NCBI GenBank assembly: GCA_038209745.1
Contig: JBBQXJ010000009.1
Span: 1 to 64,000 of the forward strand
DNA length: 64,000 nucleotides
DNA from: Verrucomicrobiota bacterium
GTDB lineage: Bacteria; Verrucomicrobiota; Verrucomicrobiia; Limisphaerales; CANJSG01
Direction of reading: 5' to 3'
Shown here: positions 31,120-63,940 of the stretch, in pieces
How the letters are laid out: every line of letters begins with the position of its first letter
Position numbering within the stretch: position 1 is the first letter of the stretch
Translations under genes and position numbers: made by a program
Notes under the pieces: generated by a model
What the model was told of the DNA's origin: nothing
Database searches by the model: none
Seen by the model: only the letters and a program-made list of their open reading frames with translations

Positions 31120-31228
31120 GTGAACCAGAGACTAACAGCGGACCAAGGTGCGTCCACGTCGAAGTTGCCGCCCCAAAAACCGGGCGGGCACTGGCAAACG
31201 TTCTCTTTTTGGGGCAGCCTCCAGAGCG

Positions 31229-47223: not shown

Positions 47224-50200
47224 TCAGGCTCCCAAATCTGCCAACACGGACTGGAGAAAGCTGGCCGCACCCGGGAGAACTCTCGCGATATCGTCCATCC
47301 GGGCGTTCAACGACTGAACCACCTCGGCCGAATTCCAGTCCACCAATCGGCGATACCATTGGAGAAAGGCCTGGTTCAGATCGGCGACGTCCGCGGGCGA
47401 TGGCCGGAAACCGTCGACTGCCACCCATCGACAGACCAGCCAGGCTGCCCGGTTGGACGCGGAAGTCTCCGTGCCGAGAGCGGCGAACAAAGGCAGAGCC
47501 TCGGCCGGCCGACCTGCGAGCAGAAGCGCTTCAGCCCGGCGAGCCTTCAGCTCCTCGTCGTCCGGGTGCTGCTCCCGCGCCGAACCCGTCCAATCCAACG
47601 CCACCTCGAGCACCTCCGGTCGATTCAAGGCGATGGCCGCGCCCAACCGCCACGCCGCGACGTCGTCCGGCGACGTCTGGACCACCTCGTAGATCAAGGT
47701 CAGAGCCCGGCCGTAATCCCCTTCCCCCGCTTCGAAGCGCGCGAAATCCATGGTGACCGGCTTGGCCCCGGGACTCCGTTGCAGGGCCAGGGCGAACGCG
47801 TCCCGGGCGGCCGCCGGTTGCTTGGCCGCGACCCGCGCAAGCGCCAGACAATGTTCCGGAGCGCAGGTCTGCAGATCACGATGCATGGGCGTCAACCCCG
47901 GCACGTCCCGCGCGGCGAGACAGGCCTCGAGCTCCCTCACCGAGAGCTCCAAGTCGCCCGTCCGCAGCGCGGCAAATCCGAGCATGTAGTGCATGGAGGG
48001 AGAAAGGGGGCCCTTCGCCATCAGCGGCTGGTGCCGGATGGCCAACAGGTCCTCAAACCGGCCGGCATCCTTCAGGATGGCCAGCCACTGGGTCAGGATC
48101 ACTTCACGCAGTTCGGGCACGATCTGGTCCGGCGCCTGGGCGCCGAGCAGTTCCGCCGCTTCGCTGTAGCGGACGAGACCGGCTTCAAGCTTTCCGGACC
48201 GCACCAGCTCCAACCCGTGGTTGAAGGTCAGGTTCGCGTCGCCCGGGATCTCCTTCATCGCCTCTTCCAGCAGGCGGAGATTGCGCTCCACCTTGTTGCG
48301 GTCGCGGGTCAGCTCCTCGGTGTAGCCGTGGTGCAGGAGACGGGTTTTGCCGAGCTTGTTGTCCAGACCCCACTCGGCCCGTCGGACCTCGATGCTGGTA
48401 AAGACCTGCTCATGGACGCGGCCCACGTAGAAGAGCGCGGGCGCATTGCGGAACAACCGGGGCACATGGCTCACGCCGTCCGCTTCCTTGCCCACGTTGA
48501 TGAGCGGCAAACGCCAGGCCATCGTCCCGGCTTCGGCCATCTCCGCATGGATCGTGGCCTTGTGCTCCGGCATCAGTTCCTCGTCGGCGTCGAGCACCAG
48601 GATCCAGTCGCCCGTCGCCAACTCCAGAGCCGCGTTGCGCGCGGCGCTGAAGTCGTGGGACCACTCGAAATATCCGAGCTTCGCGCCGAAGCTCCTGGCG
48701 ATCTCGACGGTCCGGTCGGTCGAACCGGTGTCCACCACCACGATCTCGTCGGCGAGATCCTTGACCGAGGCGAGGCACTGGCCGAGGAACCGTTCTTCAT
48801 TCTTGGCGATGAGGCAGACGGTGAGGCGCGGCTTGTCCGACACAACGGGCAAAGGCCAATCCAGGGTTTGTTTGCCCGAGCGCTTCTCGAGCGACTGGGC
48901 GAACTGCTGGACCGGCTTCCAATCCGGGACCAAAGTCACTCCGCGAGCGGCGCACCTCCGTGCGAGTCCGACGTCTCCGGCCTCATCGGCGATCTGGCCG
49001 AGCAGGAGCCAGCCTTCTGGATGAAACGGCCGGGCCGCGATCGCCGCGGAAACGAGCTCCCACGCCTTGCGCAGCTTCTTCGACCGGATGGCATCGCGCG
49101 CGTCGCCGATGTGGCCGACCCACGCCGCTTTGGACAGCACGAGACGTTTCTCGGGACCCGTCTTCGGCAGCGGCCTGGCGGCAAGGACACGGATTCGGTC
49201 CACGACACGGCCCGCCATTTGTTCCCAGGAATACTTCTTCCGGGCCACAGCCGCTCCAGCGATCCCACGAGCCCTGGCCTCGTCGGGCCGGGCCACCACG
49301 GTCTTGAGGATCCGGACCAGATCATCGACATCCGGCTCCAGCCACCATCCGTTGCCCACCAACGGCATCTTGCCGACGGCGTCGCCCAGCATCCGCTTTT
49401 GCGCGCGCAGCAGCCAACCGCATTCCTCCGTCACGAAATCATCGGTCGCTCCGCCGCGAGTCACCACGACGGGAAGCCCGCAAGCCATGGCCTCCAGCAC
49501 CGGCAGGCCGAAGCCCTCGCCGCGATACGGATGCACCAGACAGTCGCACGCCGCATACAACCCGGGCATGTCTTCGGGCGCCATTTCCTGGTCGAGATAC
49601 AGGATCTCCGGCGCATCCGGCTGTTGCCGGGCCGCCTCGATCTCATGGCTGAACGTCATGCCCTGGTAGACGGAAGCGCCCCCGAAATCCTTGATCACGA
49701 GGCAGACGTCGTCCGCTGCGGTGAACGCCCGGAGATAGCCTTTCAACAGCACGTCCGGACCCTTCCGTCCGATCGTTCCACCGACGAAGAGGAGCTTGGT
49801 TTTCTTCCTGGTCGCCAAGGGGAGCGGAGTCGCTCCCGGATGGTAGGCCGTCACGTCCACCGCATTCGGCACCACCACCACTTTGTGCGGAGCGACGCCG
49901 GAATCGACGTAGACGCGGCGGACATGGTTTGAAGGCACCCAGAACTCGTCCACATGCCGCGATGCCTCGGCCCATTCCTTGGGCAAGGAGCCGAATTCCC
50001 AGGGCTGGATGACGACCAGCGCGCCGGTTTTCGGGCGGCTCCAGTCGGGCGGCCACTGGTGGCGCACGGTGATGCGGACGTCGTTCGCCGCCTTGGGACG
50101 CAGCTCCTTCGACAACGCCTGCAAGCCGGCGTCCTTCGCCGGAGTCCCCTGCAAGGCTGCGCTCCCGACGCGGAACAGCGCGATCTCGGGACGTTGGGCG

Positions 50201-53200
50201 AGCACGGCGGTCAGAGACCGGTTGATGCCCGACAGGCTGCCGTAGTCCAGATAGGAGCCTTCCCAACTGACCCGAACCGGCGGTCCCTTGTGGGCAAGCG
50301 CCGCCTTTTCCAGAGCGCGGACGAACGGCGGCGTGACGACCGCCGGCCCATAGATGCACTCCATGAAAAGAGCCCCGGCCCGGCCCATTTCTCGGCGGCG
50401 GTCTTCGGGCAGTTCGTAGGCGGCACGCAGCGCACGCCGCACGTCCTCGACCCGCAGCAGCGGCAGGTCACGGCCCCGGTGATGGGGCTGATATTGGAGC
50501 ATCTCCTCGGTCATCGGACGCTTCAGAACGGGATCGACCGGGATGACCACCGTGCTCTCGCAATAGGGCAGCGCCGCTCCGTAGCCGTCGGGAATGACCG
50601 CGATCTTGCCGCGGACGAACGCCTCGCCCACCGGCGCGGTGAGGGTCGTGTCGGTCGAAACGTAGGCGTCGCAGGAATCGATCACCCGGCAGATGCCGGC
50701 CCGCGTTCCCAGATCCTCGTCGAGAATGATCGGCGTCGAGGAACCGGTCTTGGCCCGGAGCGACTCGATCAAATTTCGCAGGTCCCGCGCCGGCTGGCCG
50801 CTGACGGGATGCCATGATGGATAGTTGACCTTGAGGCAGAGCTCGACGTCGGGCGCGTCCTTGAACTCGGCCAGGAACGCCTCGATCAACGCATCCCAAC
50901 GGCGTCGCGGCTGGAACATCGCGACGCAGAGGAAGCGGAACTTCGCGCCCGTTTCTCGGGGCATGGGCGCGGGCAGCGCCGCATTTGCAATCCACGGATG
51001 CGGACACTTCAGGACCTGGATCTTGGCCTTGGGAACCCCGGCGGCGACGAAGCGTTCGGCCTCCTTGTCGGTCTGGAGCCAGAGCTGGTCCATCTCGTTG
51101 CAGACGGCGACCCATTCCGGAGGCGGCTTCAGCCCCTGGGCCGTGCCGTCGAAGGTCGTGAAAAGGATCCGGGCGCTGTTCGGCGGCAGCGAAACCTTCA
51201 GCCATTCCGGTGTCGCCACGTGGAAGAAGACCGCGACCACCGGCTGGGTCACGGGAGTCTTTTCCAGCGAACGCAACCACTCCAGATCGCAGTCGTCCAC
51301 TCCCTCTTCGACGCCGTCCACCGGCATGATCCGCAGCTTGATCCCCACCGCGCTCCAAGCGGCGGCGAGACAACGCGCGGCCACGCCGTAGCCGCTGCGG
51401 TTATAGAAGGGCGCGAACATGACCACGGTGGGACCGTCCGCCTTCGCCAGATTCATCGACGCGCCCACCGCTGTTTGCGCGGTCGGGGTGCGAAGACTCG
51501 GAGCCGCCAGCGTCGTTCTCATTTGCTCGACGACCCGGTCCGCCACTCCGGACCAGGCGCGGTCGCGCCGGATCGCGACGCCCGCACGCCGCCCGAGATC
51601 GGCCGCCTCGTCTCCGTTTTGCACGACGTGGCGCAGCCGTTCCTCCAAAGCCTTCTGGTCCACCTCCGCATGGACCCGTTCGCCGGTGACCCGCCAGTGG
51701 CCGACCACGGCCTGCTTCTGGGAGACGATCTTTGCCGGCACCAGATAGGCGTTCTCCGCCGACACGAATTCCCGCACGCCGCCGAAGTCCGTGGTGATCA
51801 CGGGCCGGCCGCAGGCCATCGCCTCCAGCGCGGCCAGGTTGAAGCTCGCCGTGCGGTGCGGCAGCACCAGGCAATCGCAGGCCACATAGAGCCCGGCCAG
51901 CTCCTGCTCCGACAACATCCGGGGAATGTATTCGATCTGCGGGCAGCGCGGATTGGCGATGCATTCGCCGATCATCTTCTCCAGATGCAGCCGGGCGTAG
52001 TAGTCCCCGCAATCCATGTCCTTCACCACCAGGCAGACGTCGTCCCGGTCTTTGAAGACCCGGAGGTAGGCCGCCAACAGGACATCGAATCCTCGGCGGC
52101 GGGAGGTCTCGCCGACGAACAGGAACTTGAACCGCTTCCCGGTTTTCAAGGGAAAGGGAGCGGCCTCGGGATGAAAAACCTTCGGATCGACCCCCATCGG
52201 CACTACCGCCAACCGGGCCGCGTCCACTCCGCCGGCCAGGAACTGGTCGCGGACGAATCCACTGGGCACCCAGACACGGTCGACCCCTTCGTTGATCGGC
52301 CGGACCCAGTCGGTCGGGATCGGCCCCGACCACCAGGAGCTTCCGAGGATCTGCCGCTTGGCGGCGAGTTCGTTGAAAACCGGATGCCAGCGACAGGACA
52401 CGTTCACATCCATCCCGCCCGGGAGTGGCTGGTGAAACCTCGACGCCAACGTGCGGAATCCGGGGGACGCGGCCAGGTCCAGCTCCTCGATGTGGAACGG
52501 ACCGTTCCCCGGCGTCAGGGAGACATGGTGTCCCCGCCGGACCAGTTCCAGCCCGACCTCGCGGTTCCATTTCGGAATCTTGCCATGGAACAGCTGGAGG
52601 CCGCCCCAGTGGATGTTCAGCGCCTTCTCCGGAGACGCCGGTTCCAAGGAACCGCCGGCCACCACTTCCACGACCGGACGCCGGGTTTCAGCCTGCGCTT
52701 TGCGGATGAGATCGATCATCGCGGGAGCCGTCGCCTCGTAGGAATACCGCTCGCGCATGTAGTCCATCGCTCCGCCGACCATCTGCTTGCGCTCCTCCGG
52801 GCCCAGGGCAAAAACACGCCTCAAAGCCCTGCGCATCTCCGGCACTTCGAGCGTGGCAAAGGTCGCCCCCTTCTGGTGCGGCATGTATTCGGCCATCTCG
52901 GCCGTGATCGCCACGCGACCGGAGCCGTTGGGCACGACGACGGCCTGCGGCGGCAAGTCCACGCCCCAACCGTCGGTGATGATCACGGGAAGATTGCGCA
53001 CCATCGCCTCGGTCACCGGCGCGGTATGGGTCGTGTCCGGAGACACGTAGGCATGGCATTGGTCGATCAGCCGGGCCAACTCCTTCCGCGTGCCGAGCGC
53101 TTCATCGATGACGACGCTGGCCTTGGAGGACGTTTCCCGGCGGAGCCGTTCGACCAGGGCTTCAAGATCCTTCTTGGGCTTGCCGGGCACCGGGTGCCAC

Positions 53201-53853
53201 GAGGGATAGCTCATCTTCAAATAGAGCTCCGCCTCACGGGCCCCGCGGAACTCCTCGAAGAACGCCCGGATGAGAACGTCGAGCCGGCGACGCGGGAGAA
53301 AGAGGGAGATGTGCAGGAAACGGAACGCCTGGCCCTCGCGGGGCATGGTTTCCGCCAAGGGACCGAGCCTCGAGTTGTCGATCCATTCGTGGGCCCAGTT
53401 GAAGAAGTGGATGCGCTCCGGATCCAGGCCGCCCCGGATCCAAGCGGTCTTCTCCGTCTGGTTCGCCACCCAGACCTGGTCCATCTCGTTGCCGATGAAA
53501 ATCAGCCTCGACGGAGGCGTGGCCGCATCGGCGCTGCTGTCGAACGTGGTCAACAGGATCCGCCGGCTCGGCTCGGGCAGCGGCAGCTTCGGCCACAAAT
53601 AGGTGGGAACATAGGCGAAGATCGCCGTCACCGGTCCGACCACCGGCGTGAACTTGAGCGACTGCAGCAGGTGGAGATCGACGTCGTCCAGGTCGCCCGA
53701 TGCCTTGGGGTCGTTGCAGTCCACCGGCACGATCCGGACATTGACCCCGGCGAGGTGCAGTCCCATCGCGGTGCCCCGGGCCAGAACCCCGAAACCCGAG
53801 CGCGCGAAGAACGGACCGTAGACGATGACGGTTCCAGGAAATGGGGGATTCAT
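47224..53853 (-). CDS. 2209-aa multi-domain glycosyltransferase (4 x GT4-like + TPR + GT2 + TPR), probable flagellin glycosyltransferase
   Basis: Four GT-B-like modules incl. PYRGEGFGLPVLEAMACG; GT2 LTVCLIAKNEE..VVDTGSTDRT..LVLDADE; helical TPR-like repeats. Confidence 0.88.
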   Translation of the reverse strand: MNPPFPGTVIVYGPFFARSGFGVLARGTAMGLHLAGVNVRIVPVDCNDPKASGDLDDVDLHLLQSLKFTPVVGPVTAIFAYVPTYLWPKLPLPEPSRRILLTTFDSSADAATPPSRLIFIGNEMDQVWVANQTEKTAWIRGGLDPERIHFFNWAHEWIDNSRLGPLAETMPREGQAFRFLHISLFLPRRRLDVLIRAFFEEFRGAREAELYLKMSYPSWHPVPGKPKKDLEALVERLRRETSSKASVVIDEALGTRKELARLIDQCHAYVSPDTTHTAPVTEAMVRNLPVIITDGWGVDLPPQAVVVPNGSGRVAITAEMAEYMPHQKGATFATLEVPEMRRALRRVFALGPEERKQMVGGAMDYMRERYSYEATAPAMIDLIRKAQAETRRPVVEVVAGGSLEPASPEKALNIHWGGLQLFHGKIPKWNREVGLELVRRGHHVSLTPGNGPFHIEELDLAASPGFRTLASRFHQPLPGGMDVNVSCRWHPVFNELAAKRQILGSSWWSGPIPTDWVRPINEGVDRVWVPSGFVRDQFLAGGVDAARLAVVPMGVDPKVFHPEAAPFPLKTGKRFKFLFVGETSRRRGFDVLLAAYLRVFKDRDDVCLVVKDMDCGDYYARLHLEKMIGECIANPRCPQIEYIPRMLSEQELAGLYVACDCLVLPHRTASFNLAALEAMACGRPVITTDFGGVREFVSAENAYLVPAKIVSQKQAVVGHWRVTGERVHAEVDQKALEERLRHVVQNGDEAADLGRRAGVAIRRDRAWSGVADRVVEQMRTTLAAPSLRTPTAQTAVGASMNLAKADGPTVVMFAPFYNRSGYGVAARCLAAAWSAVGIKLRIMPVDGVEEGVDDCDLEWLRSLEKTPVTQPVVAVFFHVATPEWLKVSLPPNSARILFTTFDGTAQGLKPPPEWVAVCNEMDQLWLQTDKEAERFVAAGVPKAKIQVLKCPHPWIANAALPAPMPRETGAKFRFLCVAMFQPRRRWDALIEAFLAEFKDAPDVELCLKVNYPSWHPVSGQPARDLRNLIESLRAKTGSSTPIILDEDLGTRAGICRVIDSCDAYVSTDTTLTAPVGEAFVRGKIAVIPDGYGAALPYCESTVVIPVDPVLKRPMTEEMLQYQPHHRGRDLPLLRVEDVRRALRAAYELPEDRRREMGRAGALFMECIYGPAVVTPPFVRALEKAALAHKGPPVRVSWEGSYLDYGSLSGINRSLTAVLAQRPEIALFRVGSAALQGTPAKDAGLQALSKELRPKAANDVRITVRHQWPPDWSRPKTGALVVIQPWEFGSLPKEWAEASRHVDEFWVPSNHVRRVYVDSGVAPHKVVVVPNAVDVTAYHPGATPLPLATRKKTKLLFVGGTIGRKGPDVLLKGYLRAFTAADDVCLVIKDFGGASVYQGMTFSHEIEAARQQPDAPEILYLDQEMAPEDMPGLYAACDCLVHPYRGEGFGLPVLEAMACGLPVVVTRGGATDDFVTEECGWLLRAQKRMLGDAVGKMPLVGNGWWLEPDVDDLVRILKTVVARPDEARARGIAGAAVARKKYSWEQMAGRVVDRIRVLAARPLPKTGPEKRLVLSKAAWVGHIGDARDAIRSKKLRKAWELVSAAIAARPFHPEGWLLLGQIADEAGDVGLARRCAARGVTLVPDWKPVQQFAQSLEKRSGKQTLDWPLPVVSDKPRLTVCLIAKNEERFLGQCLASVKDLADEIVVVDTGSTDRTVEIARSFGAKLGYFEWSHDFSAARNAALELATGDWILVLDADEELMPEHKATIHAEMAEAGTMAWRLPLINVGKEADGVSHVPRLFRNAPALFYVGRVHEQVFTSIEVRRAEWGLDNKLGKTRLLHHGYTEELTRDRNKVERNLRLLEEAMKEIPGDANLTFNHGLELVRSGKLEAGLVRYSEAAELLGAQAPDQIVPELREVILTQWLAILKDAGRFEDLLAIRHQPLMAKGPLSPSMHYMLGFAALRTGDLELSVRELEACLAARDVPGLTPMHRDLQTCAPEHCLALARVAAKQPAAARDAFALALQRSPGAKPVTMDFARFEAGEGDYGRALTLIYEVVQTSPDDVAAWRLGAAIALNRPEVLEVALDWTGSAREQHPDDEELKARRAEALLLAGRPAEALPLFAALGTETSASNRAAWLVCRWVAVDGFRPSPADVADLNQAFLQWYRRLVDWNSAEVVQSLNARMDDIARVLPGAASFLQSVLADLGA

Positions 53854-53871
53854 TGGGGAATCAGCGTGGTT

Positions 53872-55095
53872 TCAATCTAGCTTGTAAAGCGTCACCACGG
53901 CGTTCGGCAGCCGGAGGCTCCCGGTGATCGCCTGGTGGATCGCCTTCTGCGCGGGTCGTGAGGAGATGAGAATGGTTCCTTCCATGCCGGCCACGTCGGC
54001 CGGTTTGATGATCGGGAGATCGCGCAAGGTCTTGCCCTGGTAGCGCGGGTTGGAGTCCACCACGGCCACAAGCTTCCCTTCGGCCAAGCGACTCGTCGCC
54101 AGCAGCCGCAAAGTATGGCTGCCCGCGCCCCAGACGATGACCGGGCGACCGCTCTCGACCAGTGCGTCGATCGCCGGTTGGACCGCGTCGTTGTCGCGGC
54201 GGGAGTTGGCGACGTAGCGGGCCAGTCCGTCGGCGGTATCGGTGTCCTTCTCCCAGGGCAGCGCCGCGCCGCCCGCCACCAGCTCGAAGGCACCATGCAG
54301 CACCGGCGTGACCGTGTTGGCGCTGCAACGCTGCATCCCCTGTTCCGTGAACAGGGTCCTGAAGCCGAAGCGCGCCATCAGGTTCGAGATCGTTCTGGGT
54401 CCGAAATAGTTGATGTGCTCCATGCTGAACTCCTGGAACGGAGCGTCGTCGCCGGTGTCATACCGGCTCGCATCGGGCACGGTGACGAAGATCCGGCCCC
54501 CGGGCCGAAGCATGGACGTCATCTTCTCCAAGGCCGCCGACAGGTCGCGGATGTGCTCCATCACGCCGATCAAGATCAACAGGTCCACGGGTCCGACATC
54601 GGACAGGTCGTCGGAGATTGCCCCGGTCTTCACCGGGACTCCGTAGGCCTCACCGGCGATCCGGGAACAGACGGGCGAAGGATCCAATCCCATGACCCCG
54701 CCGAAACCGGCCTGCTTCAGCTGCGAGAGCAGGAGACCCGTCGCGCAACCGACCTCGAAGATCTTCGTGTTCGAGTCGGGCATGAACCGTTTGATCTGCT
54801 CCACCGTGAGGCGGAAGCGGGCCAGGTCGAACTCCGACGGCCCCGCCACCGCACCGGGCTCGGAGGGCATCTCATACTTCGACATGTCGCGGTAGTAGCG
54901 GTCGAAGACTTCCTGCGACGGCAGCCGGTCGGCATAGCAATGCCCGCAGTCCGCGCAGGCCACGACGTCGTAGCCGCCGAACAGGCTGCCTTCGGACATC
55001 ATCGCGAAACGCTGGGGAAAGAGGAGGCGGGTTCCGGTGCCGCGGCAGACATCGCAACCGCGCGGAGGAAGGTTCAGTTCGGGGATCGGTTTCAT
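53872..55095 (-). CDS. Class I SAM methyltransferase resembling NDP-sugar C-methyltransferases
   Basis: Start MKPIPEL; CDVC..CADC Zn site, FEVGCATG, VMEH, EHINYF, C-terminal IVWGAGSH..VDSNPRYQG. Confidence 0.8.
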   Translation of the reverse strand: MKPIPELNLPPRGCDVCRGTGTRLLFPQRFAMMSEGSLFGGYDVVACADCGHCYADRLPSQEVFDRYYRDMSKYEMPSEPGAVAGPSEFDLARFRLTVEQIKRFMPDSNTKIFEVGCATGLLLSQLKQAGFGGVMGLDPSPVCSRIAGEAYGVPVKTGAISDDLSDVGPVDLLILIGVMEHIRDLSAALEKMTSMLRPGGRIFVTVPDASRYDTGDDAPFQEFSMEHINYFGPRTISNLMARFGFRTLFTEQGMQRCSANTVTPVLHGAFELVAGGAALPWEKDTDTADGLARYVANSRRDNDAVQPAIDALVESGRPVIVWGAGSHTLRLLATSRLAEGKLVAVVDSNPRYQGKTLRDLPIIKPADVAGMEGTILISSRPAQKAIHQAITGSLRLPNAVVTLYKLD

Positions 55096-55108
55096 CACGG
55101 TCTTCGGT

Positions 55109-56293: not shown

Positions 56294-58110
56294 TTCGCCG
56301 CCCCTTCTTCATCGAGGATCGGCACGATCATGTTCTGGCGGAATTCGTCCCGCTCAAGGAACGGCCACAGATCCTCCATCGGCTTCGAATACATTGAACC
56401 GTCTTTCCGTTGGCCCGAGGAGACCCTCGGCGACGTGGCCTGAGACGGGGTGATTTTCACGACGCAGACGACCGGGCGATCATGGGACAGGACGGCGCGG
56501 AGGCCGGCTTCCAGTTCGTCGTGGTTATGGATCACGCAGGACTCGATGCCGTAGGAACCGGCCACCTTCGTCATGTCCGGCAAGGTCAATCCGCTGGACG
56601 GTTCGCTGGCGACGTAGCGCCCGTTGAAATAGGCGTTCTGGCTTTGGCGGATGGAGCCGTAGCCGTTGTTGTCCAGGATGAAGAACTTGATGGGGAGATT
56701 GAGGCGGCGGACGACTTCCAGCTCCTGGATGTTCATGACGAAACCGCCGTCGCCGTCGAGGCAGACGGTCCTGCGCCCACCCGAGGCGACACAGCCGCCG
56801 ATGGCGGCCGGGATGCCGAAGCCCATCGGTCCGAGGCCCTCGGAATTGAAGACGCGCTGGCCCGCCTTGCAGCGGAACGCCTGCATCGTCGTCTCGCTGC
56901 AGGCGCCGGAGCTGCCCGGGATCAGGAGATCGTCGGGCTGCATCTGCCTGGAGAGTTCTTCGATCAGGACGTAGTTGCTCACCCCGTCGGTGATGGCGCG
57001 GTATTCGGGCAGGCAGACGGGGTATTTCAGCCGCCAATCATGGGCCTTGGCCAACCAACCGGAATAGTCGGGCAACGGAGCCCCGGCCGTGATCGCCTCG
57101 CGCAGCGCATCCATGAAGGCGCCCGCACCGGAGACGACCGGCACCGCGACCTCCATCTGGAGCTTCCCGATCTCGGCCGCGTCGATGTCCACGACCACCT
57201 TGTGCGCGCCCCGGGCGAAGTTGGGATGCACATAGGCCGTCTGGCCGAAATCCAACCGCGCACCGATGATGAGGATGAGGTCGGAGTTTTGCTGGGTGAA
57301 GTTGGCGCCCCGTTGGCCCACGCCGCCGGGACGGCCGACGTAGAGCGGATGGTCGTCCGCCACGTAGTCGAGGGCCTTCCAGCTGGTGAGCAGCGGCACC
57401 TTCAACACTTCGAGCAGGGCTCCGAACGATGCCAAGGCGCGGTCGAGGCGGATGCCGTTCCCCACGAGCAGGGCCGGGCGTTGTGACGACCGCAGGAGCG
57501 CCACCACCTTCGCGGCCGCAGCGCGGACGGCGGCGGAATCCACCGGTGCAGCAACCTCGGCGGGATCGAACGACCGCATGGCGGCTTCATCCACATCAGC
57601 GGCCTGCACATCGAGCGGGATGTCGATCCAGACCGGGCCGGGCCGGCCGTTGCGCGCGAGATACAGCGCCTTCTCCAGATGATAGCGGATGGTGGCCGGA
57701 TCCGTGACGATGACGGCGTATTTGGTGATCGGTTCGGCCATGCGGACGATGTCGATCTCCTGGAAACCCATCTGCCGAACGCCGCGTTCGCCCTTCATGT
57801 CGGCCCGCTTGACCTGGCCGGAAATGAAGAGGCACGGAGTCGAGTCGAGCCACGCCGCCGCGACACCGGTCAGCGCATTGGTGCCGCCGGGGCCCGTGGT
57901 CACGAGCGCGACACCGAGGTTGTTCGTGTATTGGCCGTAGGCATCGGCCGCGATGGCGGCGGCCTGTTCGTGGAGACTGCAGGTGTAGGCGAGGCCGGGA
58001 TGGCTCCCGAGAGAGTCGCACAGGTGCATGCAGCCGCCGCCGGGCAGCATGAAGACGTGCTTCACGCCCGTTTGCGCCACCTTGTCCATCACGTAGTCGG
58101 AGAGTTTCAT
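56290..58110 (-). CDS. ThDP-dependent enzyme, acetolactate-synthase fold, YerE-like carboligase
   Basis: HEQAAAIAA, VTTGPGGTNA, RQMGFQE, GRPGPVWIDIPLDVQ, GDGGFVMNIQEL..NNGYGSI; lies in a sugar cluster. Confidence 0.85.
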   Translation of the reverse strand: MKLSDYVMDKVAQTGVKHVFMLPGGGCMHLCDSLGSHPGLAYTCSLHEQAAAIAADAYGQYTNNLGVALVTTGPGGTNALTGVAAAWLDSTPCLFISGQVKRADMKGERGVRQMGFQEIDIVRMAEPITKYAVIVTDPATIRYHLEKALYLARNGRPGPVWIDIPLDVQAADVDEAAMRSFDPAEVAAPVDSAAVRAAAAKVVALLRSSQRPALLVGNGIRLDRALASFGALLEVLKVPLLTSWKALDYVADDHPLYVGRPGGVGQRGANFTQQNSDLILIIGARLDFGQTAYVHPNFARGAHKVVVDIDAAEIGKLQMEVAVPVVSGAGAFMDALREAITAGAPLPDYSGWLAKAHDWRLKYPVCLPEYRAITDGVSNYVLIEELSRQMQPDDLLIPGSSGACSETTMQAFRCKAGQRVFNSEGLGPMGFGIPAAIGGCVASGGRRTVCLDGDGGFVMNIQELEVVRRLNLPIKFFILDNNGYGSIRQSQNAYFNGRYVASEPSSGLTLPDMTKVAGSYGIESCVIHNHDELEAGLRAVLSHDRPVVCVVKITPSQATSPRVSSGQRKDGSMYSKPMEDLWPFLERDEFRQNMIVPILDEEGAAK

Positions 58111-58709
58111 TCGGAAGAGTTGCAGGTCAGTTCAGCGAGGATGCCGTCCACCGTGAGGTCGGAGGCGTTCCAGGGTTGGGGAAAAATGTAGGAACGAATG
58201 CCGAGCGCCCGGGCCTGGGAGACGTTGGCGGCGGAATCGTCGACGAAGAAATCAACCGGGCCGATCCGGGCCAGAACTTCATCCTTGGTCTTGGCGTAGC
58301 CGGGCAACTTCTCACCGTCTCGTGCGCTCGGCACGAAATGGAAGTGCCGGATCCAGCGGCCTAAATGCGTGAAGGCCCACGCCGACGCAGGAGCGACCGT
58401 TCCGACCGGCCGGGCGGTCAGGATGTGGTGCTCGAAGGCGCTCCCCCGCTCGTGGAACCATTCGAGGATCTGAGCGTTCGGAGCCATCGCCGCAGCAGCC
58501 CCGGACGAGCGGAAGCGGTCGAGGGATTCCAGATAGTCACCGAGCGTGCAACCAAGCACCTCGGCCGGGGGATTCACGACCAGCTCGCCATACGCAGTCG
58601 TGCAGTCGGGACGCTCCACCTTCCAGCCCTGTTCCAGCCAGGCTTCCATCAGCGGGTTCAGGACATCGTCGAGATCCCAGACGATCGTCTTTTTGGCGGG
58701 TGCGGGCAT
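58107..58709 (-). CDS. HAD-superfamily phosphatase (5'-nucleotidase-like)
   Basis: WDLDDVL (DxD), ILTAR, FVDDSAANV. Confidence 0.75.
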   Translation of the reverse strand: MPAPAKKTIVWDLDDVLNPLMEAWLEQGWKVERPDCTTAYGELVVNPPAEVLGCTLGDYLESLDRFRSSGAAAAMAPNAQILEWFHERGSAFEHHILTARPVGTVAPASAWAFTHLGRWIRHFHFVPSARDGEKLPGYAKTKDEVLARIGPVDFFVDDSAANVSQARALGIRSYIFPQPWNASDLTVDGILAELTCNSSE

Positions 58710-58718
58710 CGTTCGACC

Positions 58719-60227
58719 TCAGTCCATCCAGTAGGTCAGGAGGGTCTTGCGGGCGGCGTTCTTGGTGATCGACTCGTCCGAGTAGTAGGAGTCGTTCTTG
58801 AAATGCGTCGAGGATATCTCCTCGAAGATGACGCCGTGCTTGGTGGCCATGTGGTGCTTCACGGTGCGGTTCACCAGGATCAAGTCGCCGGACTTGTAGC
58901 TCTTCTCCTCCCCGTCGAGGGAGATCGTGATGTCGCCGTAGACGACGTAGAAGGTCTCTTCTTTCTGGCAGTGGGCGTGTTCCGGATGGCGCTGGCCGGG
59001 GAGCATGACGAGGACCTTCTTGCAGTATTCCCGGTTGATGAAGTTCAGGAGCACCGCGCCGTTCTCGTAGAACTTCTCGATCCCGTAGTGGTGGGAGATC
59101 TCCAGATCGCTGCGCGACGAAGGCAGGGTGATCTTGCTCTTCTTCAAGAGCTTCTTCACGTCGGTCAGGATGGAGCGAACGCGCGACTGGTGGTCCACCT
59201 GGTCGATGGCCGCCTCCTTGACGGCGCCGTTGGGCGCGATGTCCTCCTTCGCGGTGACCACGCGGTATTTGGAAAGGTGCTTCGCGAGGAGCTGGCCTCC
59301 TTCGCACGGCATGGCGAGGAAGGTGTTTTCATCCGTGATCCGTTCGCCGGCCTTGATCTTTCCCTTGGCGAAGACTCCGCGGCTCAACGCCTCCAACTGG
59401 GCGATCTCCGCCGGGGTTCCCGCCATGCGGTCGTCGGTCACGCCACACAGCTCGAAGCCTTTCCGGGCCTTCTCCAACCAGCGCCGCAGCTGCTCGGGGG
59501 TCGAGCTGTAGGCGTTGGCCGGATACGTGTCGGTGACCACCGCGACGTGCCGTTCGAAGACGGTCGCGCCCTTGCCGATGGCGGCCAGGACCACTTCGTT
59601 GTCGTCCGGATTCTCATGGGTCGAGAAGCCGACGCGATGGGTCGGATAGCGCAGCCGCATGAGCTCGATCTGGCCGAGCTGGAGGTCCCTTGTATCGGTC
59701 GGATACTGCGCCACGCAGTGCATCAGGGTGAGGTTCTTCTCGCGGTGCTCGAAGAAGCTGACCACGCGGTCGATCTCTTCCCAGGAGGCGCCTCCGGCGG
59801 AAGCGGTGATCGGGAGGCCCGCCTTCGAGATGCGTTCGAGCAACGGCCAGTCCATGAAGGAGCAGCTGCCGATCTTGAGGAAGTCGTAGCCGTGCTTCTC
59901 GATCGCGGCGACGGAGCGTTCGTCGAACGGGGTGCACATGGTCTTGAAGCCGCACGTCACCATCTCGGCCTTGAGCGCGAGGAACTCCTCCTCCGTCAGC
60001 CGCGTCTCGGAGAAGCGTTTGACGAACTTCACGTCCATCCGCTTCTGGAAGTCGGGATGGATGAAGGTGTCGAGGTGGCGGTATTGGAGCTTGAAGGCGA
60101 AGTCGAAGTCGAAGCCCTTAACGGCGTCGGCGAACTCGCGGATGATCCGCTTGCCGTGTTCCACGTCGCCCATGTGGTTGTTCGCCATTTCGAGGATGAA
60201 CAGGGGCCGGCCCCATTGGTTGTTCAT
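58719..60227 (-). CDS. NeuB-family PEP-dependent synthase + SAF + D-lyxose-isomerase-like cupin fusion
   Basis: Start MNNQWG; EMANNHMGD, KLQYR, CTPFDE, KIGSC, HCVAQYPT, GFSTHE, FERH; cupin YCKKVLVMLPGQRHPEHAHCQKEETF. Confidence 0.88.
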   Translation of the reverse strand: MNNQWGRPLFILEMANNHMGDVEHGKRIIREFADAVKGFDFDFAFKLQYRHLDTFIHPDFQKRMDVKFVKRFSETRLTEEEFLALKAEMVTCGFKTMCTPFDERSVAAIEKHGYDFLKIGSCSFMDWPLLERISKAGLPITASAGGASWEEIDRVVSFFEHREKNLTLMHCVAQYPTDTRDLQLGQIELMRLRYPTHRVGFSTHENPDDNEVVLAAIGKGATVFERHVAVVTDTYPANAYSSTPEQLRRWLEKARKGFELCGVTDDRMAGTPAEIAQLEALSRGVFAKGKIKAGERITDENTFLAMPCEGGQLLAKHLSKYRVVTAKEDIAPNGAVKEAAIDQVDHQSRVRSILTDVKKLLKKSKITLPSSRSDLEISHHYGIEKFYENGAVLLNFINREYCKKVLVMLPGQRHPEHAHCQKEETFYVVYGDITISLDGEEKSYKSGDLILVNRTVKHHMATKHGVIFEEISSTHFKNDSYYSDESITKNAARKTLLTYWMD

Positions 60228-61369
60228 AGGAGTGTCCTTGGGTTGAGTTGATGAAAACGGAGGGTTTTTGAGATCGCCGCGTCGAGAGACGTCCAGACAT
60301 CGAGTCCGAGCTCCCGGCGGGCGCGTGAAATGTCCGGCACGTAGCGCGCACCGGGACGTTGGGAATCGGCCGGATCGGCGATCTGCACCGCCGATCCGAC
60401 CGGGCTGTGGCGTGAAACACGTTCCGCAACTTCGGCGATGGTCAACGCCTCGTCGGAGCCGACGTTGTAGGTGCCCTTCGCATCCGGATGAAGCAGGAGG
60501 GTCCAGAGCCAGACGGCGAGATCGGCGGCATACAGATACGAGCGCCACGGGGTGCCGTCGCCATGGACCTGGAGGGTCCGGCCGGCAAGCGCGTCGCGGA
60601 GGAAATTGCCGATGGCGTAGTGCGCGTCCAACGCGAGATGCGGACCGACGAACGCGAAGCACCGGGCGATGCGGCAGTCGAGCGTGCCGGCCTGGGTGCG
60701 GGCGTTGCAGAGGAGCTCGGCCACGCGTTTGCCTTCGCCATAGGCGGACATCGGCACGCGGACGTCGGGCGCGCCGCAGTAGGATTCGGGAACCCGTTCC
60801 AGATCGACCGGCTGCGTCCCGTAGACCGCGCCGGAACTGGTGAGGAGAAAGCGTTCGGCCCCGACGGATTCGGCCAGGTCGAGCAGGCTCCGCGTCCCCT
60901 CGTAGGCGGTTTCCAAAACGGCCAGCGGATGATCGCGATTGGCGACAACGGTGGTCTCGGAAGCGGCGTGGATGAAATGGGAGATCCGGCGGGGAGCAGC
61001 GGAACCGAGCCGGGACTGGAGATCGCCCGAACGGAACGTCCGGACGTCACCGGCCACGAGGTCGACCGAACGGGCCTCGGCCAGAGCGGGAAACGCGGAG
61101 CGGAATCGTTCTGGATTTCGGGAAAGGACGATGAGGCGGGCCTCGAGGCCGAGCCGGCGATCCGCTTCGACAAAGCTCTCCAGCAGCCAGCGCCCAAAGA
61201 AACCCGTGCCCCCCGACACGAAAACCGTGCCGCCGCGAAAACTCTCCCAGAGCGACTCGGTGCGGGACACGATCTGCTCAAGGTCCCCGGCCAATGATGC
61301 CCGTCTCCCGTCGCGTGCAGGGCCGTCGGTGGCCGGAGGGATGGTTGATGTCTGTTGTGACGAGTCCAT
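60224..61369 (-). CDS. NAD-dependent epimerase/dehydratase (extended SDR)
   Basis: Start MDSSQQ; SGGTGFFG, TSSGAVYG, YGEGK, ARCFAFVGP, RSYLYAAD. Confidence 0.88.
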   Translation of the reverse strand: MDSSQQTSTIPPATDGPARDGRRASLAGDLEQIVSRTESLWESFRGGTVFVSGGTGFFGRWLLESFVEADRRLGLEARLIVLSRNPERFRSAFPALAEARSVDLVAGDVRTFRSGDLQSRLGSAAPRRISHFIHAASETTVVANRDHPLAVLETAYEGTRSLLDLAESVGAERFLLTSSGAVYGTQPVDLERVPESYCGAPDVRVPMSAYGEGKRVAELLCNARTQAGTLDCRIARCFAFVGPHLALDAHYAIGNFLRDALAGRTLQVHGDGTPWRSYLYAADLAVWLWTLLLHPDAKGTYNVGSDEALTIAEVAERVSRHSPVGSAVQIADPADSQRPGARYVPDISRARRELGLDVWTSLDAAISKTLRFHQLNPRTLL

Positions 61370-61422
61370 GTCGTATCCCCGATCCGTGGGAAGCGGCCGG
61401 CAAGGTCGCCGGATTGATCCGA

Positions 61423-62196
61423 TCACCAGACCTTCCAGGGTGCCTGCCCGCCCACGTACATCTTGTCCAGCATCTGCTGCTCCCGGTAGGTGTCCATGCA
61501 CTGCCAGAAGCCGTTGTGGAGGTAGGCGTGGACCTGGCCTTCGCCCGCCATCCGGACAAGCGGCGCCTGTTCCAAGATGGTGGAATCGTCGCCGAGATAG
61601 TCGCCGATGCCCTTGTTGAAAACGAAGTAGCCGCCGTTGATCAGCTGCTGGTTCTCGGCGGGCTTTTCCTTGAACGCCGTGACGCGGGTTCCGTCGACCA
61701 CGAGATCACCGAAACGTGCCGCCGGGCGGACTCCGGTGATGGTCGCGAGGCCGCCGTGGTTCCGGTGGAAATCGATGGTCTTGTTGATGTCCACATCGCA
61801 CACACCGTCGCCATAGGTGGCGAGGAAGGTGTCCGAATCCAGATAGGGCAGGACGCGCCGGATGCGACCGCCGGTCATCGTCTCCGCTCCGGTGTCGACG
61901 AGGGTGACCTTCCAGTCTTCTTCGGTGTGGTTGGTGTGGTATTTGACCTTGGGGGAGGCGCCGAGACAGAGGGTCACGTCGCTCGTGTTCCACTGGTAGT
62001 TGCGGAAGTAGTCCTTGATGACCTCGCCCTTGTAGCCGAGGCAGAGGATGAAGTCGCGATGCCCGTGGTGGGCATAGGTCTTCATGATGTGCCAGAGGAT
62101 CGGCCGGTTGCCGACGGGCACCATGGGCTTGGGGCGGTATTCGGTTTCTTCCCTCAACCGTGTGCCAAGACCACCGCATAGAATGACCACTTTCAT
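61423..62196 (-). CDS. rfbF: Glucose-1-phosphate cytidylyltransferase
   Basis: ILCGGLGTRLREET..PKPM, GYKGEVIKDYF, TMTGGR, TYGDG, INGGYFV, GFWQCMDT. Confidence 0.93.
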   Translation of the reverse strand: MKVVILCGGLGTRLREETEYRPKPMVPVGNRPILWHIMKTYAHHGHRDFILCLGYKGEVIKDYFRNYQWNTSDVTLCLGASPKVKYHTNHTEEDWKVTLVDTGAETMTGGRIRRVLPYLDSDTFLATYGDGVCDVDINKTIDFHRNHGGLATITGVRPAARFGDLVVDGTRVTAFKEKPAENQQLINGGYFVFNKGIGDYLGDDSTILEQAPLVRMAGEGQVHAYLHNGFWQCMDTYREQQMLDKMYVGGQAPWKVW

Positions 62197-62254
62197 TGTC
62201 CAACTTCCGTGTTTGTTGTCTGTCGCCCGGCGAAATCTTCCCGCCGGCGGCTTT

Positions 62255-62320
62255 CGCTCTTCTCTCCGGCAGGCGCGCTGCCGGAGAGAAGAGCGGCGGT
62301 CCCTTTACCCTGACCGCCGC
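62255..62320 (-). terminator. Two overlapping hairpins downstream of flagellin
   Basis: 18-bp perfect stem 62255-62272/62278-62295 and 9-bp stem 62293-62301/62312-62320, the latter followed on the mRNA by UCUUCUCU. Confidence 0.5.
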
Positions 62321-62357
62321 CCCAATCACCCCATACCAACCAAAGGACCTTGAAAGC

Positions 62358-63167
62358 TTACTGCAGGAGTCTCAACACGCTCTGCGGGAGCTGGTTCGCC
62401 TGGGCCAACATCGCGGTGCCGGCTTGGACGAGGATGTTGTAGCGCGCGTACTGCGTGCTCTCCTCGGCGACGTCCACGTCCTTGATCCTGGAACTGGCGG
62501 CGGTGAGGTTTTCCTTGGTCACGACGAGCTGCTCGGAGGTGTAGTTCAACCGGGACTGGTAGGCGCCGATGTTGGCGCGATCGGTGGCCAGTTGGTTGAT
62601 GGCGTTCTTGACCGTCGTCAGCGCGGAGGCAGCCGCACCGGTCGTGCTGATGTTCAGAGACGGGCTCAAGACGGCCGTGTAGCTGGCCGCGGCCATGTCG
62701 ATGCCCTTCATGCTGAACGTGCCGCCTTCGGAATCGATGGTGACATTGAGCGGCGTGGTGGAGAAGAGGCTGACGCCGTTGAAATCCTTGCTCGAAGTAT
62801 TGCCGACGTATTGGACGAGCTGGTCGAACTCGGCATTGTAGAGGCTCCGGTCGGAGTCGCTCTTGGTGACGTCCTGCGAAAGGATGGCCAGCTCGCTCAT
62901 GCGGTCGAAGGCCTTCGCGATCTTCTTCATGAACCCGTCCTGGACCTGGGTGAAGGAGATGGCGTTGCCGACGTTGGACTTGGCGGCGTCCAGTCGTGAA
63001 ACCTGGGCATCAAGACGCGAGGCGACAGCGAGGCCGGCGGCGTCATCGGCGGGGTTGACGATCTTGGAGCCCGAGCTGAGACGGGAGAGCGACTTGGAGA
63101 GCATCGCCTGGCTGTTTTGCAGGTTGGATGCGGCCGCTGTGGCCTGGATGTTGGTGTTGATGACCAT
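62358..63167 (-). CDS. fliC: Flagellin (minimal, 269 aa)
   Basis: MVINTN, RLSSGSKIVNPADDAAGLA, FNGVSL, RANIGAYQSRL, SRIKDVDVAEE, AMLAQAN..VLRLLQ. Confidence 0.97.
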   Translation of the reverse strand: MVINTNIQATAAASNLQNSQAMLSKSLSRLSSGSKIVNPADDAAGLAVASRLDAQVSRLDAAKSNVGNAISFTQVQDGFMKKIAKAFDRMSELAILSQDVTKSDSDRSLYNAEFDQLVQYVGNTSSKDFNGVSLFSTTPLNVTIDSEGGTFSMKGIDMAAASYTAVLSPSLNISTTGAAASALTTVKNAINQLATDRANIGAYQSRLNYTSEQLVVTKENLTAASSRIKDVDVAEESTQYARYNILVQAGTAMLAQANQLPQSVLRLLQ

Positions 63168-63212
63168 AACTACTTCCTGTGTTGGGGTTTACTCCGTTTT
63201 CGGCGCTTCCTT
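63168..63212 (-). promoter_or_regulatory. Putative CsrA-binding sites over the flagellin ribosome-binding site
   Basis: mRNA AACACAGGAAGUAGUU with GGA 7 nt before AUG; further ACGGA (63193-63197) and AAGGA (63208-63212) in the csrA 3' end. Confidence 0.55.
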
Positions 63213-63446
63213 CTTCGGTGGCGCGGGGTTGATGCGTGGGACCTTCGGCAGTTGGGGACGTCCCTGTGTCAGGGCCTCCTTGTTGCTGCGTTGAATCTCT
63301 TCGTAAATTTCTTGGCGGTGCACCGGCACATTGAGCGGAGCCTCGATGCCGAGCTTGACGATGTCTCCCTCGACGCGGACCACCTTCACGATGATGCGAC
63401 CGTCGATGACGATACATTCATTGATTTTCCGTGAGAGAATGAGCAT
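63189..63446 (-). CDS. csrA: Carbon storage regulator / translational repressor
   Basis: MLILSRKINECIVI..VKLGIEAP..VHRQEIYEEIQRSN with a C-terminal extension of FliW-regulated type. Confidence 0.95.
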   Translation of the reverse strand: MLILSRKINECIVIDGRIIVKVVRVEGDIVKLGIEAPLNVPVHRQEIYEEIQRSNKEALTQGRPQLPKVPRINPAPPKKEAPKTE

Positions 63447-63465
63447 AGATACAATCCCTCTTTGG

Positions 63466-63897
63466 TTATGCGGACAACGGAACGGGATGCCGCAGCGAGA
63501 ACTGCGCGGCGTTCATCGGAATGACCTGTTTGGCCACCATGGTGTGCCGGTTGAGCACGATGGGTCCCTTCAGATTGACGGTCGTGCCCGCTCCGCCGTG
63601 CAGGGTGACGATGTTGATGATGAGCGCATCGTCCGGGCTCTCCAGACCGAGGAAGGAAACATCGTCGTCGCTGAGCTCCGGGCTGTAGTCCGCTTCCAGG
63701 ACAAAGGGCGAGATGACCAGGAACGAGTGGTTCGGATCATCCAGCATCTGGAGCCAAAGGAACGGATCGTCCTCGGGGCTGGAGAGCAGCACGTATTGCT
63801 TGATCTCTTCGAACCCCAGCAATCCGAGCGGCATCCTGATGACGTTTTCTTTTCGGACTGTGAGCCACTGCTCATCTGTATGTGCGACCGTTTTCAT
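63466..63897 (-). CDS. fliW: Flagellar assembly factor FliW
   Basis: GLLGFE, PFLWLQ, FLVISPF, TVNLKGPIVLN..AKQVI; adjacent to csrA. Confidence 0.93.
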   Translation of the reverse strand: MKTVAHTDEQWLTVRKENVIRMPLGLLGFEEIKQYVLLSSPEDDPFLWLQMLDDPNHSFLVISPFVLEADYSPELSDDDVSFLGLESPDDALIINIVTLHGGAGTTVNLKGPIVLNRHTMVAKQVIPMNAAQFSLRHPVPLSA

Positions 63898-63923
63898 TTG
63901 TTCTGCTCGTCTACCTGTCGTTA

Positions 63924-63940
63924 AGCAAAGCCGATGCCAA
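63924..63940 (-). promoter_or_regulatory. Sigma54 (-24/-12) promoter upstream of fliW
   Basis: Minus strand TTGGCATCGGCTTTGCT = GG-N10-GC, ending 26 nt before the fliW ATG, with AT-rich DNA upstream. Confidence 0.8.

Follow-up and report, generated by a model that had tools for sequence, protein, structure and literature searches.

Eleven co-oriented genes on the minus strand of contig JBBQXJ010000009.1 (C9 below), which belongs to the genome of a Verrucomicrobiota bacterium (assembly GCA_038209745.1; 4.58 Mb, 140 contigs, 92% complete), were found at positions 47224 to 63897 of the window, that is, of the stretch of 64,000 nucleotides formed by bases 1-64000 of this contig. With a probability of about 0.65, we read this block as a cytoplasmic flagellin O-glycosylation island, and we infer its acceptor, the order of its steps and the structure of its sugar. 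The reading draws on the gene content, predicted solubility, homologies and synteny observed for the island: a family 2 glycosyltransferase (GT) domain whose nearest solved relative is the flagellin glycosyltransferase GmaR, the synteny of its orthologues with the flagellin gene fliC, a second island of this kind in genome G417, a YerE-like thiamine diphosphate (ThDP)-dependent enzyme, soluble proteins throughout and tight junctions from the short-chain dehydrogenase/reductase (SDR) gene to the giant GT gene. It is further supported by RfbG and RfbH, which accompany the sugar cassette of the island in other loci.

Island genes and the giant glycosyltransferase

The eleven island proteins were annotated with Pfam and NCBIfam, and membrane segments were sought by Kyte-Doolittle hydropathy in 19-residue windows. 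As the original prediction, made from the sequence alone, had described, all genes are co-oriented and several stop and start codons overlap. Overlaps of 4 nucleotides occur at three junctions (SDR/NeuB, HAD/ThDP and ThDP/FkbM), and the successive junctions from the SDR gene through the giant GT gene measure -4, 9, -4, -4, ~13 and 18 nucleotides. For the NeuB-cupin gene, the start codon is the ATG at 60227, part of an ATGA that overlaps the stop codon of the SDR gene (SDR start, 61369), and the start of the C-methyltransferase gene was corrected to the ATG at 55095, 13 nucleotides past the FkbM stop codon. Pfam and NCBIfam detected no domain of a flippase, polymerase, ligase, ABC transporter or initiating transferase among the island proteins, which agrees with the earlier statement that the first three are lacking, and none of the proteins has a 19-residue window with a hydropathy above 1.6, so that all are predicted to be soluble. 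The genes that mark an O-antigen, capsule or exopolysaccharide cluster are missing, as the region 47224-63897 contains no initiating transferase, Wzx/Wzy, ABC transporter or ligase; such genes are located on C9 past the window and on another contig, C30.

The last gene of the block (47224-53853) codes for a giant glycosyltransferase of 2209 amino acids with GT4, GT2 and tetratricopeptide repeat (TPR) domains. Residues 1-1600 (49054-53853) arose by internal duplication, residues 8-789 aligning with residues 809-1565 at 37% identity before a distinct tail, and each half consists of a divergent domain of ~400 residues followed by a clear GT4 domain. Residues 1-400 gave no sequence match in PDB. 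Their predicted model (predicted local distance difference test score 72, predicted template modelling score 0.71) retrieved GT-B/GT4 structures in Foldseek with probability 1.00 and template modelling (TM) scores of 0.34-0.45, values that limit the assignment of residues 1-400 to a fold class. The divergent domain of each half is read as a GT-B domain.

The remaining 609 residues (1601-2209; 47224-49053) form a different unit, in which TPR matches flank a GT2 domain on both sides, those on its C-terminal side being TPR-like repeats. The best solved relatives of the GT2 domain are GmaR (108 bits, E 3e-30), whose match spans the GT domain only (query residues 74-267), and then the peptide S-glycosyltransferase SunS (79 bits). 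The motifs DTGSTD and DADE are invariant across 12 aligned homologues, and the DxD signature of the GT-A fold is present. GmaR is described in PMC9638930 as the flagellin O-GlcNAc transferase of Listeria, in which a TPR domain comes after the N-terminal GT domain. The kinship with flagellin glycosyltransferases that had been expected of the GT2-TPR part was thus found, and we propose from these homologies that the C-terminal TPR-GT2-TPR unit is a flagellin-recognising, chain-initiating module.

The proposed acceptor of the glycan is the product of the island fliC gene (62358-63167; Pfam Flagellin_N and Flagellin_C), which lies behind fliW (63466-63897) and csrA (63189-63446). FliW, a flagellar assembly factor and CsrA antagonist, was recognised by Pfam (118.6 bits) and stayed below the cut-offs of the NCBIfam FliW models; the translational regulator CsrA matched TIGR00202 with 85.5 bits (cut-off 70.1). 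The flagellin is a minimal protein of 269 amino acids with a short Ser/Thr-rich middle, as had been predicted: serine and threonine make up 10 of the 30 residues in block 121-150 and 8/30 in block 151-180, against 2-7 in the remaining blocks, and the motifs STTPLNVT, SYT and SPSLNISTT are present. The flagellins encoded ahead of the GT orthologues in relatives share 46-79% identity with it. Ten aligned flagellins are all minimal and Ser/Thr-rich in their centre, and GT-linked copies could not be distinguished from unlinked ones. The same genome codes for a second flagellin, 66% identical to that of the island and followed by fliD, on contig C2 (locus L005, 10156-12905); no glycosyltransferase domain was found among the neighbours scanned there.

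The linkage of the giant GT to flagellin genes was examined in a phylum sample of 400 genomes and an order sample of 30 genomes, the genes of lower-GC loci being called as longest open reading frames. Generic GT2 matches are frequent in the phylum sample (201/401 at E <=1e-10), and the eleven best non-self matches stand apart. Eleven phylum loci were examined, namely ten of the eleven matches with E <1e-30 (G301 was left out) and G153. Flagellin genes are located within 7 kb in eight of them (G351, G330, G177, G303, G243, G171, G372 and G099); G169 and G350 are short contigs without flagellin, and G153 has no flagellin within 10 kb. In the order sample, the full GT module was detected in 19/30 genomes, including all six of the same genus, mostly as the terminal part of reading frames that are 639 to 3838 amino acids long. 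Among 16 order loci, fliC is just upstream of the GT, mostly with fliW-csrA, in G417, G401, G418, G425, G420, G409 and G414. Six of these 16 loci end at a contig edge and are uninformative, and the addition of G330 and G351 gives 18 loci, 12 of them informative. fliC precedes the GT in 9 of the 12 informative order genomes, accompanied in 8 by a match to fliW or csrA, which supports a role in flagellin glycosylation.

A contig search through all bacteria found no relative when a single GT module was the query, and found relatives with an alignment-based query. The three closest records for the GT module are labelled Verrucomicrobiia, Verrucomicrobiota and Bifidobacteriaceae. In the last, a contig of a metagenome-assembled genome (MAG) labelled uncultured Bifidobacteriaceae (L074), fliC is 2.8 kb upstream of a Verrucomicrobiota-type giant GT and the flagellin is 71% identical to that of the window; the label is probably due to mis-binning. 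The expectation of a flagellin-linked glycosylation island in the Verrucomicrobiota is supported by the closest relatives of the GT module, which are MAGs named Verrucomicrobiia or Verrucomicrobiota, and by the synteny of the orthologues with fliC.

Across the orthologues, the end GT4-TPR-GT2-TPR is conserved and the parts fused ahead of it vary by genome, including radical SAM, pyruvyl transferase, methyltransferase, asparagine synthase, HAD hydrolase, WbsX and extra GT2 or GT4 domains. Four flagellin-adjacent frames of 3000-3800 amino acids that end in GT4-TPR-GT2-TPR (L147, L150, L154 and L056, in G401, G425, G409 and G351, respectively) carry radical SAM, polysaccharide pyruvyl transferase, asparagine synthase and methyltransferase domains and a weak GT29-like stretch. 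The domain content of such flagellin-adjacent giant frames shifts even inside one genus.

Enzymes of the sugar cassette

The first gene behind fliC, rfbF (61423-62196), codes, to judge by its match to TIGR02623 (349 bits, cut-off 300), for a genuine glucose-1-phosphate cytidylyltransferase that would make CDP-glucose. It is followed by an extended SDR of 381 amino acids of the Pfam Epimerase family (60224-61369). This protein scored 26 bits against the CDP-glucose 4,6-dehydratase model of NCBIfam (cut-off 278), and its best solved relative is a UDP-glucuronate decarboxylase (106 bits). The site at which dehydratases generally carry D or E appears to read TSSGAVYG here, with no acidic residue. 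The SDR is probably a ketoreductase or epimerase rather than a 4,6-dehydratase; its candidacy as the missing CDP-glucose 4,6-dehydratase, RfbG, was set aside as the less likely reading on the 26 versus 278 bits and because G417 has the SDR plus a true RfbG.

The next gene (58719-60227) codes for a fusion of 502 amino acids with Pfam NeuB and Cupin_2 domains. Its scores are below the equivalog cut-offs for NeuB (135 vs 400) and PseI (106 vs 340), Pfam detected no C-terminal SAF domain, in the place of which there is the cupin, and the NeuB domain matches the uncharacterised structure 3g8r (377 bits), which places it in a 3g8r-like subgroup. The cupin resembles D-lyxose/mannose isomerases. Among 8000 scored candidates, 5687 proteins matched at E <=1e-30, plain NeuB-family proteins included, and the best 120 listed relatives are nearly all proteins of ~500 amino acids with both domains, from many phyla and with generic names only. 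The family is large and highly conserved: members with 53-57% identity come from Nitrospirae, Saganbacteria, Omnitrophica, Microgenomates and a Nanoarchaeota MAG, and the closest metagenomic relatives reach 85%. As NeuB-type enzymes make 3-deoxy-2-keto acids, we propose that the NeuB-cupin protein and the HAD-like phosphatase encoded next to it may be the donor source for the ThDP enzyme.

This putative phosphatase (58107-58709) had no Pfam or NCBIfam match, and a single-sequence phmmer search against solved structures was unhelpful. Its WDxDDVLN motif is invariant in 11 aligned homologues, and a profile search reached E 2e-4 for the HAD hydrolase 3cnh and E 0.04 for a putative 5'(3')-deoxyribonucleotidase.

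The ThDP-dependent enzyme (56290-58110) contains the three Pfam ThDP domains and the canonical GDG motif. It scored 404 bits with JanthE (8rph) and 302 bits with the best acetolactate synthase, and is below every acetolactate synthase equivalog cut-off of NCBIfam. JanthE is a YerE-like carboligase according to PMC12188165. As described in the review PMC12247030, YerE adds activated acetaldehyde, obtained from pyruvate, to CDP-3,6-dideoxy-4-keto-glucose, ErwE uses the same CDP-4-keto-3,6-dideoxyglucose, and ErwE and MMAR_2332 prefer longer, hydroxy-functionalised 2-keto acids as donors. By homology, we propose that the enzyme of the island introduces a C-branch into a CDP-4-keto sugar.

Two methyltransferase genes complete the cassette. 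The product of the first (55109-56293) belongs to the FkbM family (Methyltransf_21, 50.9 bits; TIGR01444, 59.4 bits, above the cut-off) and has ~200 N-terminal residues without an assigned domain. The second (53872-55095) codes for a C-methyltransferase-like enzyme of 407 amino acids with a Methyltransf_23 domain and a weak match to the C-methyltransferase C-terminal domain (20.4 bits, cut-off 23.5), a cut-off that its homologues in cassette loci exceed. The island thus encodes a YerE-like ThDP enzyme for branching and methyltransferases for methylation, as anticipated. Given the YerE-like enzyme, a CDP-3,6-dideoxy-4-C-branched, methylated hexose is the likely product of the cassette, as read from its enzymes.

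Distribution of the cassette and the proposed pathway

Full-length NeuB-cupin proteins are encoded in 21 of the 400 sampled phylum genomes. In the 20 loci examined, a YerE-like ThDP gene adjoins the NeuB-cupin gene in 16, and HAD (10), RfbF (9) and C-methyltransferase (10) genes are also found; the frequent pairing with the ThDP gene suggests one pathway. Other neighbours are RfbG, RfbH (651-727 bits, cut-off 423) and radical-SAM enzymes, and G417 encodes all three of RfbF, RfbG and RfbH in cis, as do cassette loci including L036 and L043. In three loci from non-flagellated members of the phylum (L036, L039 and L043), the cassette occurs with B12-binding and SPASM radical-SAM enzymes, near GtrA and GT2 or YfhO, a context that suggests extracytoplasmic glycosylation via a lipid-linked sugar. 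These neighbourhoods mark the cassette as a portable sugar module, used in most cases for glycans other than that of flagellin.

G417, from another family of the same order, has the gene order csrA-fliC-rfbF-rfbG-rfbH-SDR-NeuBcupin-ThDP-CMT-giant GT (CMT, C-methyltransferase). Identities with the window are 80% for rfbF, 62% for the SDR, 51% for the NeuB-cupin protein, 58% for the ThDP enzyme and 47% for the C-methyltransferase, and its giant GT of 2383 amino acids is built from the same five modules, which are 38-56% identical. This repeated island counts against a pure coincidence of the cassette beside fliC. Homologous clusters unlinked to fliC, which the original prediction had regarded as contrary to it, were found for the cassette in most of the phylum, but neither for the GT nor for the island of G417.

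These loci also bear on the use of the keto acid. It is highly improbable that the island makes two sugars, with the NeuB-cupin protein and the HAD-like enzyme producing a free ulosonic acid of the KDN (ketodeoxynonulosonic acid) or Kdo (ketodeoxyoctonic acid) kind that is added to flagellin in the manner of Maf, and the ThDP enzyme separately making a yersiniose-type sugar from pyruvate. The NeuB-family domain and the mannose/lyxose-isomerase-like cupin fit such a scheme, a phosphatase beside a NeuB-like synthase recalls the KDN-9-phosphate route, and YerE itself takes pyruvate (PMC12247030). However, neither a CMP-ulosonic acid synthetase nor a Maf-type transferase is among the eleven proteins, the scores are far under the NeuB and PseI cut-offs, the NeuB-cupin gene is directly beside the ThDP gene in 16/20 loci, and G417 keeps both without a HAD gene. 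A pseudaminic- or legionaminic-acid Maf-type system was rejected, since no Maf transferase or CMP-sugar synthetase is among the eleven proteins.

The claim that the island has its own unusual-sugar pathway did not hold for a complete pathway, as rfbG and rfbH are missing from it and are located on contig C30 of the same genome. The C30 locus (L071, 7268-16837) resembles an O-antigen cluster: besides rfbG (445 bits), rfbH (653 bits) and another copy of rfbF, it contains rmlC, rmlD, a VapC-family PIN gene and genes for a Wzy_C/ligase-like protein and a Wzx-like flippase. Its rfbG and rfbH are 63% and 75% identical to the copies in the island of G417. As these two genes are found only on C30, they are probably needed by the island in trans, the C30 cluster probably supplying the dehydratase steps that the island lacks.

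Several observations weigh against flagellin glycosylation by the whole island. For the GT, three order genomes (G411, G412 and G415) have the module and no flagellin within the stretch examined, a flagellin match was found within 6 kb in just 13 of the 73 best all-bacteria loci, and the GT2 family is also cyanobacterial, in many loci. For the cassette, 18 of the 21 NeuB-cupin genomes have no flagellin match (the three that do are G258, G321 and G336), one family with 12 cassette carriers has flagellin in 0/65 genomes, FliC, FliW and CsrA are absent within 10 kb of NeuB-cupin in all 20 loci, and none of the six same-genus genomes has the cassette. Some cassettes have GtrA and GT2, YfhO, an ABC-2 transporter or an O-antigen-ligase-like gene as neighbours, which point to envelope glycans. 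Within the genome itself, the nucleotide sugar could also, or instead, feed lipopolysaccharide (LPS), since rfbG and rfbH are in an O-antigen-like cluster with a Wzx-like flippase gene, and the HAD assignment of the small protein is weak. Co-transcription of fliC with rfbF is not established in view of strong hairpins in the spacer of 161 nucleotides between them (62197-62357). The region 62197-62360 folds with -78.6 kcal/mol (z -4.6; 0 of 200 shuffles equally stable), and one hairpin, with a 17-bp stem and no U-tract, was not listed by a simple terminator scan; these hairpins are possibly a transcript end or an attenuator.

Many of these points would also fit a mixed locus, in which the giant GT puts ordinary nucleotide sugars on flagellin and a mobile cassette landed beside it whose product goes to LPS or another envelope glycan. 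Such a locus would be in line with the distribution of the cassette, largely in genomes without flagellin, never beside fliC in the 20 loci and lacking in 6/6 same-genus genomes that retain the GT module. It would also agree with G321, where the same cassette gene order lies between an ABC-2 transporter gene and an O-antigen-ligase-like gene, with the Wzx-like and ligase-like genes that adjoin rfbG and rfbH on C30 and with the review PMC12247030, which places YerE-like enzymes mainly in LPS synthesis. We nevertheless consider it unlikely, as G417 has the full pathway between fliC and an orthologous five-module GT, so that a chance insertion must have persisted or recurred, the junctions from the SDR gene to the GT gene are 4-nucleotide overlaps or short gaps, and no envelope-directed transferase or exporter is encoded inside the island.

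The flanks of the block are relevant to another alternative. Past the window on C9 (locus L004, 2673-11531), a cheR-cheD-HDOD-cheB block diverges from fliW, and beyond it are genes for a Wzc-like P-loop protein and a Wza-like exporter, 4.4-7.2 kb past fliW, and rmlA- and rmlD-like genes. The target of the island could be something other than flagellin, either a secreted or capsular polysaccharide or another protein, with the giant multi-GT enzyme resembling a polymerase, akin to the multi-domain synthases of O-antigen or capsule, and its position next to fliC being uninformative. The Wzc- and Wza-like genes upstream of fliW would suit this, as would the capsule multienzyme 8qoy among the fold matches, the known multi-domain GT fusions of capsule synthesis, the GT2 relatives in non-flagellated cyanobacteria and the three order genomes without flagellin in the stretch examined. 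This alternative is quite improbable in view of the GT-fliC linkage in 9/12 informative order genomes, of the nearest solved relatives GmaR and SunS, which are protein or peptide glycosyltransferases and not polysaccharide synthases, of the lack of membrane segments and of an initiating phosphoglycosyl transferase in the island, and of the opposite-strand chemotaxis block between the island and the export genes.

Returning to flagellin O-glycosylation, the island would work as follows. RfbF would make CDP-glucose, from which the C30-encoded RfbG and RfbH would form CDP-4-keto-3,6-dideoxyglucose in trans. The NeuB-cupin protein, acting on phosphoenolpyruvate and an aldose, would provide a donor 2-keto acid together with the HAD-like phosphatase, and the YerE-like enzyme would decarboxylate this acid and transfer the acyl unit onto C-4 to give a tertiary-alcohol branch. 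The SDR may then reduce or epimerise the branched product, and the C- and FkbM-type methyltransferases would methylate the sugar. The TPR repeats of the soluble 2209-residue enzyme would hold the flagellin while the GmaR-type GT2 domain adds the first sugar to Ser/Thr of its short central region, before export; the chain would be lengthened by the four GT-B domains, and the branched sugar would be used by one or more of the five modules. FliW and CsrA, encoded just upstream, might couple flagellin translation to export, as they do in other bacteria. The most specific version of this pathway, in which the NeuB-cupin and HAD-like proteins yield a hydroxylated 3-deoxy-2-keto acid, the YerE-like enzyme grafts it onto CDP-4-keto-3,6-dideoxyglucose, and the five-module GT places the resulting branched and methylated higher-carbon sugar, akin to caryophyllose and erwiniose in class, on flagellin, is doubtful and is offered as a tentative possibility.

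Should this grafted-keto-acid version be true, it would mark the first case of a flagellum with a tertiary-alcohol branched sugar, and the NeuB-cupin family, which occurs in many phyla, would gain a function. If the branched sugar is on the flagellin, the range of known flagellar glycans widens to include a chemistry that is tied to LPS in the review PMC12247030. The pairing of NeuB-cupin and YerE-like genes (16/20 loci) is a testable source of unusual keto-acid donors, of interest for biocatalysis. The order as a whole keeps a GmaR-like flagellin module to which its lineages fuse differing glycan-building domains, and thereby offers a natural library of modular protein-glycosylation enzymes.

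The sequences 3' of the giant GT gene are housekeeping genes (rhodanese, Fe-S assembly protein, GNAT, cdsA, dxr, rseP and ispG). A sigma-70 promoter scan gave 0 sites, and a terminator scan gave 9 sites against 12 expected, which is not above chance. Elsewhere in the window, and unrelated to the island, are genes for a PSCyt1/PSCyt2/PSD1 protein typical of Planctomycetes and Verrucomicrobia (31136-33565) and for an FAD oxidoreductase with a Golvesin C-terminal domain (34654-36753).

Comparison with known systems

Flagellin glycosylation is well known, though most studies concern pathogens and systems of separate enzymes. FlmG of Caulobacter crescentus combines TPR with a GT-B domain, and the sugar that it transfers is pseudaminic acid. 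Compared by description only, the proposed system of the island follows the logic of FlmG as presented in PMC7591256, a modular enzyme in which TPR serves flagellin and the GT serves transfer, in the cytoplasm and on several flagellins. Like the module of the island, GmaR of Listeria monocytogenes (PDB 22ao; PMC9638930) has a GT2-type catalytic domain followed by TPR and a flagellar gene neighbourhood, and is described as acting on a short flagellin in the cytoplasm, as we propose here. In contrast to GmaR, the module forms the C-terminal fifth of a 2209-residue protein with four extra GT-B domains and an added TPR before the GT2 domain, an anti-repressor role of the MogR type, for which no search was made, is not indicated, and the likely donor is not UDP-GlcNAc alone.

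Flagellin glycosylation islands are reported from Pseudomonas, Campylobacter, Clostridium difficile, Geobacillus and the Enterobacteriaceae (PMC5109656, PMC4875605 and PMC5207246), and these accounts describe, as is found here, a variable sugar and GT block beside the flagellin gene without export machinery. Their content varies strongly between strains or species, and here it does so within one genus. The GTs described there are separate, whereas in the window and its order relatives up to ~3800 residues are fused in one frame, with GT, methyltransferase, pyruvyl-transferase, radical-SAM and amidotransferase domains in the order. No YerE-type branching enzyme is mentioned in the available text of these three reports.

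The pathways of yersiniose, erwiniose and caryophyllose (DdhA-C/RfbF-H with YerE, ErwE or MMAR_2332), as summarised in PMC12247030, share with the island RfbF and a YerE-like enzyme, and the SDR is a candidate for their reductase. Their known products end in LPS or glycolipids according to that review, whereas the cassette here is in a flagellin island, has the NeuB-cupin protein, the HAD-like enzyme, the C-methyltransferase and the FkbM protein in addition, and leaves RfbG and RfbH outside. In a literature coverage that is incomplete, no publication was found on flagellin glycosylation in Verrucomicrobia, nor on a yersiniose-type sugar on flagellin. To call the island a candidate new system, as was done in the original prediction, overstates the case, as flagellin glycosylation islands are already known. 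What sets it apart from these islands is the fusion of the transferases in one five-module enzyme, the embedded YerE-type branching pathway and its uncharacterised NeuB-cupin partner.

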